Shown here: positions 21,044 to 38,002 of the stretch, piece by piece | Position numbering within the stretch: the first letter of the stretch is position 1 | How the letters are laid out: every line of letters starts with the position of its first letter | Virus genome (UHGV): UHGV-0206207 | Reading direction: 5' to 3' (one strand) | Origin: a virus | Length of the DNA stretch: 39,489 nucleotides | Position numbers and translations under genes: made by a program | The notes under the pieces: model-generated | What the model saw: the letters and a program-made list of their open reading frames with translations, nothing else | Database searches by the model: none | What the model was told of the DNA's origin: nothing

Positions 21044-22306
21044 TTATATTCCTCCTCTAAAGGTCTTTAACTTCACTTTTCCTTTTCTCTCCTGCTCAAT
21101 TGAGTACCTGAGCATCGCCATCGCATCATCAAAGAAATTCACTGGCTCATCCGTGAAAGTGTTCGTTTTCTCATCCTTTTTCCATTTCCACTGCTGAATC
21201 TCCTTAGTCGTGTTTACGCAGGACGGATGAATGTGAATCGTGTGCTGCTTCAGATAATCAATCTGCGCTTTTACACTGTTCGGCTCTTTCTTGACCGGAC
21301 ATGCTCTGTATCCTGCTTTCTGCCACATCTTAATCCTGTCCGGCTCAGCAGAATCGCAATACATGGTGATTCGTTTTTGGAATTTTCCCTCAGCCAACTG
21401 TATGATCTCTGATGTATCTTTTTCAAATACATACAATTCCCGACATAAGTAGATATCTCCATCCTTGAATCCAACCTCACCGATACAGTTCGCATGGTTA
21501 AATCCAAAGTCCTGTGAATTTACCATGTAATCGAATCTTTCTGGGGATGTATCGAATTCCTCAACCACATAATTTGTAAGGATAAGACCGCCAGTTTCTC
21601 CCCATTCACCGAGTCCATAAATCCGATACCCATCCGGATCCCGCTCTTTACGCATCATCATGCGCCGATGGTACGCCTCATCAATAAAGCGGTTTTGTAA
21701 GTATGTTGACTGGTGTGTGTATACATCATCACTTTTTATGTCGAAATACTTTGCCTTCAGCCAGTGCGTTGCTGACACTGGATTAAAACTGAATGTGATC
21801 TGATAATACAAAAATGGATTGAATGACAAGTCACCTCTGAGTCGGTCATCGAGAATATCGACATCCGCTTCGTAAAGCTCCGTTGCTTCTTCAATCCATA
21901 TCCATGTTAATTTTCCGACATCAAATGTGATAGACTTTACTTTTTCTCGCTGTCCATCGTCTTTCATCCCTCGGAAAATTATTTTATTTCCAGTTACTTT
22001 AGATATCAGCTCCATTGGATTGCTTCTGATCTGCCAGAACAATCCTGCTTTATCCCCGTATATTTTATATATCGCACTCTTCAATTCTGCATAGGTACTA
22101 TCCTTGTTTGTTGTGTCTACTTTCCGGACGCACAAGAGATTTGCGCCTTTATATTTTGGGTCACCCAGTTTGATGATAAAATTCTGTGCAATGTTTACCG
22201 ACTTCCCGGATCCGGCAGAACCTTTTGCCAGTCGATACCGTTTCTTGCACTCATTAAACTCTTTGAAATTTCTGTTAAATCCAACATTAACTTGTTTCAT
22301 CACCAT
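21044..22306 (-). CDS. terminase large subunit
   Basis: Walker A motif AKGSAGSGKS near the N-terminus, ~420 aa, overlapping the end of TerS. PBSX/XtmB-like. Confidence 0.85.
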   Translation of the reverse strand: MVMKQVNVGFNRNFKEFNECKKRYRLAKGSAGSGKSVNIAQNFIIKLGDPKYKGANLLCVRKVDTTNKDSTYAELKSAIYKIYGDKAGLFWQIRSNPMELISKVTGNKIIFRGMKDDGQREKVKSITFDVGKLTWIWIEEATELYEADVDILDDRLRGDLSFNPFLYYQITFSFNPVSATHWLKAKYFDIKSDDVYTHQSTYLQNRFIDEAYHRRMMMRKERDPDGYRIYGLGEWGETGGLILTNYVVEEFDTSPERFDYMVNSQDFGFNHANCIGEVGFKDGDIYLCRELYVFEKDTSEIIQLAEGKFQKRITMYCDSAEPDRIKMWQKAGYRACPVKKEPNSVKAQIDYLKQHTIHIHPSCVNTTKEIQQWKWKKDEKTNTFTDEPVNFFDDAMAMLRYSIEQERKGKVKLKTFRGGI

Positions 22307-22856
22307 CACCGTAATCTACCACAATCTTCATGTCCATATCTCCTGCCACATCTAGCTTGTCATTCCACATACCTAAATGTCTGCCGAGAAGTTCCAGAGC
22401 CTTCACCTTGTCGCAGGGCTTCTGTTCCAATCCATCGCGCCCCTTTTTAATCGTTCCGAGGGCTCGCTGCTGTTCCTCAGTAAGGTTATCTGTAAGCTCC
22501 AATTCTACGGTCCGATACAGAATCGGTTCTCCGTCTTCTCCTACGAGCGGAATAATATTTCCATCTACTTCTGCTGTAGCCTGTTTCTCAACTACTTTCG
22601 CGTAGTCTGAAGCCTTGGAAAAAGCAATGGCAGCCAGTTCATTTAAAACTCGATCCTGCGTGATCTCCGTCCGCTTCTGCCGCTCTTCCATTCTTTCGGC
22701 AATATATTCTGCAACCTTAGCATTTCTTAGCAACTTACTTCCATTTACTGCTGCTGACTCTTCTTTCTTTACGCTTGGATATGCGACGCGGTAAGCCCGT
22801 GTGGCATTTAGATCAATCAAGTACTCATCTGCAAATATTTTCTGTTTTTCTGTCAT
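22287..22856 (-). CDS. terminase small subunit; probable start at MTEKQKIF, with AGGTGGTGA as RBS
   Basis: KIFADEYLIDLNATRAYRVAYPS is the classic N-terminal HTH region of a Terminase_2-type small subunit. Confidence 0.8.
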   Translation of the reverse strand: MTEKQKIFADEYLIDLNATRAYRVAYPSVKKEESAAVNGSKLLRNAKVAEYIAERMEERQKRTEITQDRVLNELAAIAFSKASDYAKVVEKQATAEVDGNIIPLVGEDGEPILYRTVELELTDNLTEEQQRALGTIKKGRDGLEQKPCDKVKALELLGRHLGMWNDKLDVAGDMDMKIVVDYGDGDETS

Positions 22857-22888
22857 AGGACTCACCACCTTCCATTCTGTTCTATTCT

Positions 22889-22932
22889 GCATAAAAATAA
22901 CTATACACCTTAATCTATAGGCATATAGTTAT
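22889..22932 (-). terminator. weak AT-rich hairpin terminator after the 161-aa cassette gene
   Basis: ATAACTATA-18nt-TATAGTTAT stem followed by TTTTTATGC on the minus strand. The stem is AT-rich, so termination is probably partial. Confidence 0.4.
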
Positions 22933-22947
22933 CGTCAATTCATGTCG

Positions 22948-23433
22948 TTATAATGTTATCTTCATCATTCCGCAATAATCCTCAAATGGGAATTTTATAT
23001 TATACTCCTTGGCAATTTTCATTGCTCTTCGAATAATATTTTCCTTCTCCTTATTCGAATATCCATTTAGTTTAACCACTTCATTTAGATATATTGCCGT
23101 CATAAGTACGGCAAATGCGTCTGCGTCTATCTCAGATATCTGCGACCTATATTCTTCTAGGCTCACTATTCCAACTTCTTTATACTTTGAATAATAAAAA
23201 TCAGAATCCGTTACCCATTGCCATTTATGTCTGACTTCATGAGCAATGTCATAATACGCATCTCTAGTTCTTGCTTCCACGCCTATATAAACAGTGTCAG
23301 TTTCAGGATCGTACCATGAACTCCCATAGCCTCCGTGTTCTTTGTACCTTATACTTGGGGTAGTAATGTGTAAAAATTTCGAAACTTCTCTTGCGAATTC
23401 CACCAATTTCTCAACTTGTTCTTTCTCTTCCAT
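22948..23433 (-). CDS. small HExxH putative zinc metallopeptidase (moron)
   Basis: 161 aa containing IAHEVRHKWQ (HExxH). It is an AT-rich gene with its own sigma-70-like promoter and a downstream hairpin. GGAGGAAAAACGC is the RBS. Confidence 0.55.
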   Translation of the reverse strand: MEEKEQVEKLVEFAREVSKFLHITTPSIRYKEHGGYGSSWYDPETDTVYIGVEARTRDAYYDIAHEVRHKWQWVTDSDFYYSKYKEVGIVSLEEYRSQISEIDADAFAVLMTAIYLNEVVKLNGYSNKEKENIIRRAMKIAKEYNIKFPFEDYCGMMKITL

Positions 23434-23477
23434 GCGTTTTTCCTCCTCATCCTGCGCCTAACAATTACCACGCATAT

Positions 23478-23506
23478 ATTTTACAATGCCCCCTATTCTC
23501 TTTCAA
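23478..23506 (-). promoter_or_regulatory. sigma-70-like promoter (TTGAAA-17-TAAAAT) for the 161-aa gene
   Basis: The hexamers and the 17-nt spacer were read directly on the minus strand. The promoter lies about 45 nt upstream of the start codon. Confidence 0.5.
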
Positions 23507-23635
23507 GCAAAAGCACCCATCTCTGGATGCTAAGAATTTAGGACTACTGCTATGAAAATTACAAACGCCAACAAAAACCAAAATAACCAAGTACACAAAC
23601 AATTTATAAGAAAAGGAGCTTGCAGTAGTCCACAA

Positions 23636-23708
23636 CGGGTATAGTAGGACTCGAACCTACGACACATCGGTTAACAGCCGATTGCTCTACCAACTGAGCT
23701 ATACACCC
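23636..23708 (-). tRNA. tRNA-Asn (anticodon GTT)
   Basis: Minus-strand sequence GGGTGTATAGCTCAGTTGGTAGAGCAATCGGCTGTTAACCGATGTGTCGTAGGTTCGAGTCCTACTATACCCG folds as a 73-nt cloverleaf. It has a 7-bp acceptor stem, GCTC/GAGC D-stem, ATCGG/CCGAT anticodon stem with loop CTGTTAA, GTAGG/CCTAC T-stem with TTCGAGT loop, and discriminator G. CCA is not encoded. Confidence 0.85.
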
Positions 23709-23906
23709 ACAGGATGCCGTCTGACATCCTTTACCCTATCCGCGCTCGGGTGCGCTGATTACACTAAATATAGACATATTGTCTACTTGTTTGTTCTGGC
23801 AGATCTGCGGATATCTGCGTTTTGGTACCATTTGCGATGTAAAGCCGGTGTGCACTCCCTACAGCACCCCCCCCCAGCTGGTAAGCCGCAAACCTTACAT
23901 CACAAA

Positions 23907-23950
23907 ACCGTGTGTAGGAATCGAACCTGCTTGTCCCAACTGACCACGGT
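23907..23950 (-). pseudogene. tRNA-like fragment with acceptor, D-like and T arms but no anticodon arm
   Basis: Minus strand ACCGTGG-TCAGTTGGGACAAGC-AGG-TTCGATT-CCTAC-ACACGGT. It has a GGTTCGATTCC T-loop and a 6-bp acceptor-like stem but is only 44 nt long. Confidence 0.4.
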
Positions 23951-23976
23951 ATAAGAAAAAGCACCCCGAAAGGTGC
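23951..23976 (-). terminator. rho-independent terminator of the 202-aa cassette gene
   Basis: GCACC-TTTCGG-GGTGC hairpin followed by TTTTTCTTAT on the minus strand, ~20 nt after the stop codon. Confidence 0.7.
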
Positions 23977-23994
23977 CTTCTCTCTATTTTAAAT

Positions 23995-24603
23995 CTATAC
24001 TAGAATTCCCATGTTTCCATTTTCTCTTGTACGTAAAGCGAAGTCACCACCAATTCTTGTCGTAACTTCCCATCCTTTCATTTTAAACAATCTCGATTTT
24101 ATTTCTGGCTCATTTATCGTGTTCCCCTCACACACTTTTTTACACAAAAATCTATTTAACATATATAGTCCTGCAAGCGCATTAAAAACATTTTCTAAAT
24201 TTGCCTTCTTTTGATTATCGCTATCTAATCTATCGTGTTTAACGCTATTATAGGCTCTCCACCATCTTGGACTATCATTACTTGTCCATCCTCTAAACGG
24301 TTCGGATTCTTCTCCAGTATATTCATATATCACTTTTTCACTTGTAAAATTTTCATAATTGCAAAGCACCTCTGCATAAGTTGAAATGTTATTTCTAGGT
24401 TGATTCGGTGCGATATTCTTACATAGCTCTTTACATACAATATCTACTTCAGAACCAATCGCCAATAATTGTTTTGCATATTCTTTTGAATATGTGGAAA
24501 AATTATCTTCACTAAATTCAACAAAGCCTAATGTGTTATAAAAATCATTTTCTAATTGTAAATAAAACATCCAAATATTTGTATTATACTCCTGTATTGT
24601 CAT
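23995..24603 (-). CDS. hypothetical protein (moron); probable start at MTIQEYNT, giving 202 aa; speculative HEPN-like motif
   Basis: AT-rich ORF with its own TATAAT promoter, a GGGGGGAA RBS and its own terminator. RAYNSVKH near the C-terminal third fits Rx4-6H only loosely. Confidence 0.6.
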   Translation of the reverse strand: MTIQEYNTNIWMFYLQLENDFYNTLGFVEFSEDNFSTYSKEYAKQLLAIGSEVDIVCKELCKNIAPNQPRNNISTYAEVLCNYENFTSEKVIYEYTGEESEPFRGWTSNDSPRWWRAYNSVKHDRLDSDNQKKANLENVFNALAGLYMLNRFLCKKVCEGNTINEPEIKSRLFKMKGWEVTTRIGGDFALRTRENGNMGILV

Positions 24604-24605
24604 AA

Positions 24606-24640
24606 CTAAATTCCCCCCAATGTGTTTTTCTTTTATTATA
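24606..24640 (-). promoter_or_regulatory. promoter and RBS of the moron gene (-10 TATAAT at 24635-24640)
   Basis: A consensus -10 hexamer lies ~30 nt upstream of the ATG. The -35 is not convincing, and the region is AT-rich. Confidence 0.4.
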
Positions 24641-24664
24641 CACCATTTTCGCAATATATTCTAT

Positions 24665-24696
24665 ACCAAAAACGCCCTCAAACCGGGGGCGCTTTT
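24665..24696. terminator. terminator after the ArpU-like gene, bidirectional
   Basis: CGCCC-9nt-GGGCG stem followed by TTTTTGG on the minus strand and CTTTTAC on the plus strand. Confidence 0.65.
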
Positions 24697-24780
24697 ACAA
24701 CATATAGATTCCTGGGGGAAACAATCAGAACATTATCCTAATAATTCTAGAATAATTATATCATAAGTAAAATATAAATG

Positions 24781-25203
24781 CTATAAATCTTTAAGCTGTC
24801 CGCTTATAATCTGCGATACTCGCGCCTGGGTATATCCAATTTCATCTGCGACTTTTTGTTGGGTTTTCCCCTCAAGATAGTGCAACTCGAATATCTCCTT
24901 AATCTCCGGATCGCCAATCCCATTTATGTAGTCTTCGACTTCTTCTTGCTCTTTCAGGATCCGCAGCCTGTCCGCTTCTTTTCGCCTAATCTGCTGTCTT
25001 ACATTCTCGTCTTCGTAAGGATCATACATCTGGACTGATGTTCGCACTTCCGTGTATGGGAAATCTGCACTGGATCCTGTTACTTTCCCCATAACAACAG
25101 TTGGTTCCCGTTCGCAAAGTTCTTGTGTCCTCTCCTCTATTCGGATTAACCTGTCTTTGTTCGGCTTATACTTTTTTAAAGTTTTCTTGTCCACTGGAAA
25201 CAC
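24781..25203 (-). CDS. ArpU-family / sigma-70 region-4-like late transcriptional regulator
   Basis: 140 aa. The C-terminus ELHYLEGKTQQKVADEIGYTQARVSQIISGQLKDL is a sigma-factor region-4 HTH. Its size and its position upstream of the packaging genes are typical of ArpU-like late activators. Confidence 0.7.
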   Translation of the reverse strand: MFPVDKKTLKKYKPNKDRLIRIEERTQELCEREPTVVMGKVTGSSADFPYTEVRTSVQMYDPYEDENVRQQIRRKEADRLRILKEQEEVEDYINGIGDPEIKEIFELHYLEGKTQQKVADEIGYTQARVSQIISGQLKDL

Positions 25204-37132: not shown

Positions 37133-37144
37133 ATGAGGTGTATT

Positions 37145-37561
37145 ATGTATGAAATTTATTGCAAGTTAAGAGATGAAAAAGGATGTAAAGATGCGGATGT
37201 TGCGAAAGCTACTGGTATAACTAAGTCTACTTTTTCTGATTGGAAGAATGGGCGAAGTAAACCAAAAGATGAGAAGCTTACTAAGATAGCTGATTACTTC
37301 GATGTACCATTAACATATTTCTATGAGGAACATAGGGATAATGCAGCATCATTGACAACGAGAGATGAGCGTGACATTTCCAAGACAGTAAATGACTTAA
37401 TGGAAAAATTGGAAGCAAAAGATGGGGCACCACTGTTTTTCGACGGTACTGAAATGAGCCCAGAAACAAAAATTTTATTCGAACAGCAATTAAAGTCATT
37501 AGTAACTACTGTTAAGGAAATCAACAAGGTCAAGTTTAATCCGAACAAAAATAAAAAGTAG
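37145..37561 (+). CDS. XRE-family phage repressor (CI/ImmR-like); start at MYEIYCKL
   Basis: N-terminal HTH TGITKSTFSDWKNGRSKP plus a ~75-aa C-terminal extension. AGGTG is the RBS. It is translationally coupled to the downstream ImmA-like gene. Confidence 0.75.
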   Translation: MYEIYCKLRDEKGCKDADVAKATGITKSTFSDWKNGRSKPKDEKLTKIADYFDVPLTYFYEEHRDNAASLTTRDERDISKTVNDLMEKLEAKDGAPLFFDGTEMSPETKILFEQQLKSLVTTVKEINKVKFNPNKNKK

Positions 37562-38002
37562 GTGATTACCTTGAAGCAAGATGTAAAAACAATAGTGAAC
37601 AATTTAATAAGTAAATACGGCACAAGAAACCCTTATGAATTATGTGATTACACAAATACAATTTATCAAATATGCGATATCGGTGATGTATTAGGTTGCT
37701 ACTTACTTATTAAAAGACAAAAATGCATTATGCTAAACAAAAAAATAATAGGAACTCCAATGGAGAAATTTATTTTGAGTCACGAATTGGGACATTCTCA
37801 ATTACACAGAAAAAATGATTGCTATTTCTACGGAAGCACATTGTTTTCTAAGCTCAAAGAAGAAAACGAAGCCAACACATTCGCCGCAGAACTTCTGATA
37901 CCAGATTCTCTCATCTATGAGAATCCGGGCATGACAAAAAGCCAGATTGCAAGACTAGCTGGATATGATGCAAAGATTATGGAGTTTAAAAGCGTATTGT
38001 AA
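37562..38002 (+). CDS. ImmA/IrrE-family HExxH metallopeptidase (anti-repressor protease)
   Basis: SHELGHSQLH is the HExxH motif. ~146 aa, immediately downstream of the XRE repressor, which is the ImmR/ImmA arrangement. GTG or TTG start. Confidence 0.8.
   Translation: MITLKQDVKTIVNNLISKYGTRNPYELCDYTNTIYQICDIGDVLGCYLLIKRQKCIMLNKKIIGTPMEKFILSHELGHSQLHRKNDCYFYGSTLFSKLKEENEANTFAAELLIPDSLIYENPGMTKSQIARLAGYDAKIMEFKSVL

Follow-up and report, generated by a model that had tools for sequence, protein, structure and literature searches.

The morons of lambdoid phages are promoter-gene-terminator units inserted in late operons (the Juhala/Hendrix concept). In UHGV virus genome UHGV-0206207, a stretch of 39,489 nucleotides analysed here at full length and referred to as the window, the interval between the gene for a late transcriptional regulator and terS holds two genes, ORF1 (202 aa) and ORF2 (161 aa), on either side of a tRNA-Asn. 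Comparison with related phages indicates that this interval is a two-slot cargo hotspot built around a conserved RNA module, and that ORF1 and ORF2 are discrete insertions which fit the comparative definition of morons. As in lambdoid phages, the two cassettes come and go between conserved late-region genes, deviate in base composition, carry a -10 or a promoter-like sequence and are flanked by a terminator, and the same slot holds different cargo in different relatives. Unlike the classical examples, the slots flank a conserved RNA module that contains a tRNA. We propose that ORF1 is a solo HEPN abortive-infection moron and ORF2 a zinc endopeptidase moron, and we regard this explanation, taken as a whole, as probable, with considerable room for doubt. 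The anatomy, the insertions and the folds of both cassettes are held with high confidence; a defence function for ORF1 stays tentative, close to but short of an even chance.

The closest functional analogue of ORF1 would be HepS of the Gifsy-1 prophage (PMC13043305, PDB 9oik). This solo HEPN protein is by default inactive; it responds to tail-tip proteins and cuts tRNAs in the anticodon loop. HepS offers a precedent for a prophage abortive-infection (Abi) protein of the HEPN class that works with no partner. Like HepS, ORF1 is a single HEPN protein (~200-220 aa) in an accessory slot of a temperate siphophage, has no partner or antitoxin gene and belongs to a family spread over distant bacteria. 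It is no homologue of HepS, either by sequence or by close structural similarity, and where HepS has the canonical R100-x4-H105, ORF1 has Y-N-x-V-K-H-x-R and carries in addition a C-terminal β domain. The activity of HepS has been demonstrated, whereas ORF1 is likened to it from sequence and a structural model.

Members of the HEPN superfamily carry an Rx4-6H motif where helix 3 ends and a conserved acidic residue in helix 2, within Ex3[KR], and have an insert that separates the two helices (PMC3710099). ORF1 resembles the HEPN defence RNases (Csm6/Csx1, MNT-HEPN toxins, AbiV, the C-terminal domain of AbiA, RnlA/LsoA and PrrC/RloC; PMC3710099) in its four-helix core, the insert between helices 2 and 3, the His that ends helix 3 and an acidic-x3-basic pair. 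Its family is also associated with type I restriction-modification loci and Abi genes, as are PrrC, RloC and the Abi families. It differs from these RNases in matching no Pfam, NCBIfam or PADLOC model and in lacking an MNT, CARF, ATPase or other partner, fused or neighbouring. The motif Arg is replaced, a departure from canonical HEPN proteins that recalls the Parep1/8 families, which retain the His and have other basic residues in place of the Arg (PMC3710099).

ORF2 is comparable to minimal gluzincin or M78-like metallopeptidases (ImmA/IrrE, DUF6782, minigluzincins such as selecase MJ1213, and the protease domain of ArdC) in having HExxH and a downstream Glu and in fitting a thermolysin-like catalytic fold into ~150 aa. 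Unlike ImmA/IrrE it has no adjacent helix-turn-helix (HTH) repressor, unlike ArdC it has no single-stranded-DNA-binding domain, and unlike the other minimal gluzincin or M78-like peptidases its family is mostly phage-borne.

The insertions were mapped against about 200 related phage contigs of the Ruminococcus gnavus type, with edges placed by BLAST junction mapping. Among IMG/VR relatives, 95 have the regulator at 60-99% amino-acid identity, and 80 of these phages were compared; a further set comprised 120 contigs carrying an invariant 20-mer of the RNA module. Slot A was defined as running from the regulator to the RNA module and slot B from tRNA-Asn to terS. Downstream of the regulator stop codon a conserved intergenic stretch (24727-24780, minus strand, as are all features of the interval), which includes a TATAAT at 24760-24755, is shared with L213, L216, L217, L219, L228 and L248. 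Nucleotide homology with all six runs to 24727 and breaks at the ORF1 cassette's left junction. Both junction sets are sharp: the ORF1 cassette (769 bp, 23958-24726, 33.2% GC) stands in place of 62 nt of L217, and the ORF2 cassette (637 bp, 22872-23508, 36.3% GC) in place of 11 nt of L219, a relative with terS and terL proteins 98% identical to those of the window and with homology that stops at 23509. The short contig L212 matches the window at 99.7% up to 28 nt before the ORF1 ATG and a 98%-identical ORF1 protein exists in another sample; the ORF1 cassette is therefore real and no assembly artefact.

Both genes are absent from all 80 of the regulator-sharing IMG/VR phages. In the further set ORF1 was found in none of the 120 contigs and ORF2 in five. 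Slot A is empty in 64 of 74 regulator-sharing phages. The other ten hold different cargo of 0.8-1.8 kb, which includes a HicB-like antitoxin at 5 loci, two SocA/Panacea antitoxin pairs that differ from each other, and several proteins whose function is unknown and which match nothing in Pfam (L227:3902-4306, L288:3732-5126, L286:3609-4400, L287:3688-5342, L289:3880-4512 and L291:1852-2833). Such contents support the original prediction, made from the sequence of this interval, that the site is typical of defence, toxin or fitness cargo. Slot B is empty in 11 of 17 phages and occupied by other small genes in six. The ORF2 cassette itself recurs in L005-L010 and L125-L131; in the former, where ORF2 is 99% identical, the order is regulator, tRNA-Ala or tRNA-like element, spacer, tRNA-Asn, ORF2 and terS, with no ORF1. 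The idea that ORF1 and ORF2 work together as a pair was ruled out, since each is widespread without the other. In a phage group that is very common in the human gut, the two slots would be a practical place to mine for defence, counter-defence or toxin-antitoxin genes.

Within the window, the ORF1 cassette opens with a hairpin followed by UUUUU (T1, 24664-24697, -15 kcal/mol, z -2.5) at its upstream edge, then a perfect -10 TATAAT (24640-24635), a GGGGGG ribosome-binding site (24618-24613), ORF1 (23995-24603) and the strong terminator hairpin T2 (23953-23984, -19.5 kcal/mol, z -6.2). The ATG start of ORF1 is backed by 16 of its 16 closest homologues. The ORF2 cassette comprises a promoter-like site, TTGAAA-17-TAAAAT (23506-23478), a GAGGAGG ribosome-binding site, ORF2 (22948-23433) and T4 (22896-22933), a 15-bp hairpin with a U-run (-16.7 kcal/mol, z -4.8). 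Between the cassettes, a fourth hairpin with a U-run, T3 (23512-23531, -11.5 kcal/mol, z -2.3), follows tRNA-Asn, forms the right edge of the RNA module and lies beside the point where the homology with L219 ends. Each cassette thus ends in a hairpin and U-run, and ORF1 is preceded by one as well; across T1-T4 the energies span -11.5 to -19.5 kcal/mol and z-scores -2.3 to -6.2. The site before ORF2 is the best promoter match on the minus strand, with 10 of 12 positions. Coding-sequence GC is 31.7% for ORF1 and 35.8% for ORF2, against a phage mean of 44.1% (standard deviation 3.3, 609-nt windows); every 609-nt window below 36% GC falls inside the two cassettes, which are the lowest-GC stretches of the phage.

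All the elements that the original prediction listed on the minus strand are present. Its picture of two AT-rich, self-contained cassettes flanking tRNA-Asn agrees with the junctions, the absence from relatives and the GC contrast, and the terminators it assigned to them are convincing hairpins; the one after ORF2, which it called weak, is solid. Its view of the whole interval as an accessory island holds for the ORF1 and ORF2 cassettes, but the tRNA-like fragment, the spacer and tRNA-Asn are conserved core and no insertion.

The single ORF1 sequence has no Pfam, NCBIfam, PADLOC or PDB sequence match, and its only PHROG match is phrog_19461, of unknown function. A word-indexed search gave 18 relatives. 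Scans with sequence patterns detected 532 loci among species-representative genomes of many phyla, plus 31 in IMG/VR, and searching with a profile yielded at least 698 protein clusters, each labelled 'hypothetical' and none with a Pfam domain. Among 50,697 GenBank phage records a relative was present in one unannotated fragment only. A BFVD fold search returned one uncharacterised Siphoviridae fragment as its sole match.

The AlphaFold2 model of ORF1 (predicted local distance difference test (pLDDT) 91.9, predicted template modelling score (pTM) 0.90) predicts a HEPN fold, which bears out a guess made from the sequence. Helix 2 spans residues 40-64, the insert 65-112 and helix 3 residues 113-123, and a small β domain occupies residues ~165-202 at the C-terminus. 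His123 is the last residue of helix 3, in keeping with the place of the HEPN His where helix 3 passes into the loop to helix 4, and is invariant in 108 family sequences. The acidic position of HEPN helix 2 is likewise represented, by E52 (98%) and by D54-x3-K58 (94% at each end). The canonical Arg 4-6 residues before the His is not present in the family: position -5 is Tyr118 in 98% of members, and position -7, R116 in the window protein, varies among R, K, D, G, Q, E and N. The Rx6H motif at first suggested for ORF1 gives way to a conserved Y118-N119-x-V121-K122-H123-x-R125, each named residue 94-100% conserved, preceded by an invariant W114-W115. Asn119 (99%) is the polar position after the missing Arg, and K122 (100%) and R125 (99%) flank the His, so that the R-N-x-x-x-H of canonical HEPN proteins becomes Y-N-x-x-K-H-x-R. 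By analogy with Parep1/8, we infer a catalytically competent HEPN variant in which flanking basic residues stand in for the Arg.

No conserved partner gene accompanies the family, the 146 non-redundant immediate neighbours belonging to 116 Pfam families. The commonest are type I restriction-modification subunits (HsdM, which is next to the gene in 6 loci, as well as HsdS and HsdR), integrases and IS200; others include RloB/AbiL and the PADLOC candidates PDC-S13, PDC-S56 and PD-T4-7. Elsewhere among phage contigs the family repeatedly adjoins genes for phrog_36/248 regulators, for terminase subunits, for HNH endonucleases and for portal proteins, which is the slot occupied in the window. In Cuneatibacter caecimuris (L001:6033-8612) a homologue of 48% identity lies directly 3' of an AAA_21 ATPase and RloB, an AbiL-like pair, across a 45-nt gap; the homologue may act as a third component, or may be an independent gene that shares a defence island with the pair.

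Distant relatives occur on well-known lactococcal phage-resistance plasmids. In pNP40 (NC_010901.1 17122-17997; L206:5019-5894) the gene adjoins AbiF and is near AbiE, and in pCV56A-type plasmids (L205:4968-5891) it lies two genes after AbiQ. These uncharacterised proteins have 291-307 aa, with ~120 aa extra at the C-terminus, and align with ORF1 at an hhalign probability of 98%; Y-N-x-I-K-H is kept and the WW pair is missing. From their sequence and position they may represent an unrecognised resistance determinant. Lactococcal Rhea is a protein of 303 aa encoded by a single gene, with no predicted domain, and was reported not to co-localise with known systems (PMC11381338). The plasmid relatives, by contrast, adjoin AbiF or lie near AbiQ, and we do not claim that they are Rhea.

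We propose that slot A acquired a 769-bp moron encoding the solo HEPN-fold ORF1. In the lysogen the protein would most likely form a dimer or a higher oligomer that is inactive. Infection by another phage would trigger it to cut RNA (tRNA, rRNA or mRNA), metal-independently, via His123; in place of the canonical Arg, Asn119, Lys122 and Arg125 would serve, helped by Asp54/Lys58 from helix 2. An abortive infection would follow that protects the lysogen population, in the manner of HepS. The RNase activity, its trigger, the defence phenotype and expression in the lysogen are all conditional parts of this scheme. That ORF1 typifies a family, both new and widespread, of HEPN nucleases that bring about abortive infection as single proteins, with a rewired active site and a recurrent place between regulator and terminase in phages, is possible, though we would put it at somewhat less than an even chance. 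Were ORF1 active, a large unannotated family of ~200-aa proteins, present in hundreds of species, gut prophages and the lactococcal plasmid pNP40, would join the solo HEPN defences, and the HEPN active site would be seen to tolerate the loss of its hallmark Arg. A role for tRNA-Asn as a self-immunity tRNA against an ORF1 anticodon nuclease was considered and is not supported, the RNA module being present in about 200 relatives that have no ORF1.

The ORF2 family comprises three close relatives and 282 distant representatives, with the signature HE[LIM]RHxWQ ... Y..Q..E[ILV]DA[NHD]AF. Invariant residues are R68, Q72, Y95, Q98, E101 and D103, while at least 90% of members have H65, E66 and H69; in ORF2 the motif reads HEVRH at residues 65-69. 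Matches to DUF6782, a putative metallopeptidase, were found for 34 of 45 members and to Peptidase_M78 for 18 of 45, and the family profile weakly matches the minigluzincin selecase MJ1213. The AlphaFold2 model (pLDDT 94) predicts that ORF2 is a minimal gluzincin zinc metallopeptidase, with HExxH (H65-E66-x-x-H69) and a Glu on a thermolysin-like fold; E101 is likely to be the third zinc ligand. The family has 140 IMG/VR members and is mainly phage-borne, many members lying on contigs of 100-196 kb. No conserved partner was found across lineages, and an HTH repressor is never adjacent. The PADLOC check that had been recommended, made against PADLOC-DB v2, gave no match to a known system for ORF2, as for ORF1.

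In our proposal slot B acquired a 637-bp moron encoding this soluble minimal zinc endopeptidase, which would most likely cleave a specific host or competitor protein to the benefit of the phage. Confidence in any specific role is low. ORF2 does point to an uncharacterised family of phage-borne mini zinc proteases.

Three other explanations deserve consideration. Both genes could be ordinary late-operon genes with a housekeeping role, as packaging or head accessories, and their AT-richness incidental. They do lie on the strand of the late operon directly upstream of terS, ORF1 relatives adjoin terminase genes in other phages too, and ORF2 is syntenic with terS in L005-L010. Yet L219-L221 have terS and terL proteins 98-99% identical to those of the window and neither gene; most members of the ORF1 family lie on chromosomes, not near phage genes, and at least 532 species from different phyla have one; neither protein matches any structural or packaging PHROG; and terminators flank each gene. 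The comparison of relatives which the original prediction had called for thus went its way, as the genes are not conserved members of the late operon and have no housekeeping matches, and we consider the late-operon explanation very improbable. An ORF1 with a HEPN fold and no nuclease activity is a stronger contender, if still unlikely. Its role would then lie in binding or regulation: it might, for example, inhibit host HEPN proteins or other defences or serve as a decoy for them, or it might exclude superinfecting phages by binding. The near-universal Tyr at the place of the Arg speaks for it, since the HEPN families with partial loss of the motif include non-catalytic ones (PMC3710099), and so does the want of any antitoxin or partner to restrain a supposedly toxic RNase. 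What argues for catalysis is the 99-100% conservation across phyla of His123, Lys122, Arg125 and Asn119 at the position of the HEPN active site, together with the acidic/basic pair of helix 2, a pattern typical of catalytic residues. Parep1/8 make a similar exchange of the Arg while keeping the His (PMC3710099), and HepS is a solo HEPN protein held inactive with no partner (PMC13043305). For ORF2, the alternative is an anti-repressor protease of the ImmA/IrrE type, which would cleave a CI-like repressor, either the phage's own or that of competing prophages, and so control induction. ORF2 shares HExxH and a downstream Glu with ImmA/IrrE, but the gene never stands beside an HTH repressor, has no partner conserved across lineages, sits at the packaging end and belongs to a family found in phage contigs of 100-196 kb. 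The phage also has a canonical repressor and protease pair of its own as its lysogeny module, at 37133-38002 on the plus strand, in which a CI-like HTH repressor of 142 aa (37133-37561) is coupled with an ImmA-like metalloprotease of 146 aa (phrog_87), and that protease is unrelated to ORF2 in sequence (E 0.2). An anti-repressor ORF2 therefore seems improbable to us.

The proposal of a HEPN moron and a zinc-peptidase moron has several observations weighing against it. Besides the missing Arg, which could mark the ORF1 family as non-catalytic HEPN proteins with a binding or regulatory role, as in some HEPN families, 82 diverse family members yielded no Pfam, NCBIfam or PDB sequence match and no consistent PADLOC match. 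The excess of defence genes near the family is a qualitative impression. The -10 of ORF1 is perfect but its -35 is poor, and promoter-like sites as a class are no more frequent than chance would give (11 found, 8.4 +/- 2.5 expected), so that a promoter function of the cassette sites is only suggested by their sequence. The profile matches of ORF2 to DUF6782, M78 and MJ1213 are weak, and the window protein falls below every Pfam gathering threshold, including that for DUF6782 and that for M78 (PF06114, 12.9 bits against a cut-off of 22). The possession of a separate repressor and ImmA-like protease pair bears on the role of ORF2 as well. Finally, the relatives of ORF2 on large contigs favour a role for the phage during infection, in host takeover or counter-defence, over defence of the lysogen. 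Of the earlier suggestion of morons expressed from the prophage, the insertion of both genes stands, while the mainly phage-borne ORF2 family points to activity at the time of infection instead.

The RNA module between the slots, made up of a tRNA-like minihelix or tRNA-Ala, a spacer and tRNA-Asn, is by comparison of relatives part of the core of this phage group and not cargo. In the window it consists of a 44-nt minihelix (23907-23950), which T2 abuts, a non-coding spacer of 197 nt (23710-23906) and tRNA-Asn(GTT) (23635-23709), the last identified by ARAGORN and by Rfam (RF00005, 72.6 bits) and found in the relatives too. The first position of the module holds either a full tRNA-Ala(CGC) or a minihelix of 40-46 nt, in which a variable linker joins a 6-bp acceptor stem to a 5-bp T-arm with a GGTTCGA loop and an anticodon arm is missing. 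The minihelix occupies 48 of 73 loci and tRNA-Ala the other 25, and a minihelix is present in at least 79 of the 120 further contigs. Across distinct minihelix sequences 97.9% of cells are paired, compared with 29-53% in a control in which the partner was slid by 1-3 columns, and compensatory double changes occur in 5 of 11 pairs; the minihelix is thus, by these comparisons, a selected RNA structure. It is not a tRNA truncated by the insertion of ORF1, a possibility ruled out by the compensatory changes and by the same 44 nt in many relatives that have no ORF1. RNase P, RNase Z or the CCA-adding enzyme could plausibly use it as a handle, and as a processing site for RNase P or RNase Z it may set the 5' end of the downstream RNA.

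The spacer had been described as structured, and it does fold better than its shuffles (z -2.3). Of the 44 pairs in its consensus fold 6 are compensatory, and its 5' hairpin is variable with some compensation. The 3' part (23712-23830, ~120 nt, four small hairpins) is almost invariant across 48 distinct sequences and is conserved above the flanking protein genes; its 20-mer GCAGATATCCGCAGATCTGC is present in at least 120 IMG/VR contigs. Covariation is uninformative for this part, as its sequence hardly varies. Neither the spacer nor the minihelix has an Rfam match at E <= 10. The invariant part could act as RNA, for instance in the leader of the late operon or in antitermination, or as DNA, for instance as a site for packaging or regulator binding. 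Together the conserved minihelix and the invariant spacer suggest that the late-operon leader contains a phage RNA element not described before. In the window, the 5' hairpin of the spacer contains a run of nine G (23867-23875, minus strand), 4 nt longer than in all relatives, which could stem from slippage in the homopolymer or be an artefact of sequencing or assembly.

In those relatives whose slot B is empty (L219:3960-4000) terS starts ~25 nt after T3, which leaves no room for a promoter. Late transcription therefore seems bound to read through the terminators: it would pass between one and four of them (T1-T4 in the window), by antitermination or because the terminators are very leaky. 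Read-through of this kind would also allow morons that bring terminators of their own to occupy the site without harm. Lambdoid late operons likewise tolerate morons that have their own terminators.

The left anchor of the hotspot, at 24781-25203, encodes a late transcriptional regulator of 140 aa that resembles RinA and sigma-70 region 4 (Sigma70_r4, E 4e-7; phrog_36, E 4e-15); it had been called ArpU-like, and is not demonstrably ArpU. The right anchor is terS (22287-22856; Terminase_2, PF03592, E 6e-36; phrog_51, E 6e-47). Judged by the length in relatives, its true start is probably the ATG at 22856, which gives a protein of 189 aa. The window belongs to a temperate siphophage of the R. 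gnavus type, which encodes an integrase, a repressor, an ImmA-like protease and an endolysin; the integrase is a serine integrase at 665-2101. It is related to phiRM10, phiRgIBDN1 and RG-TP1, phages of Ruminococcus (Mediterraneibacter) gnavus.

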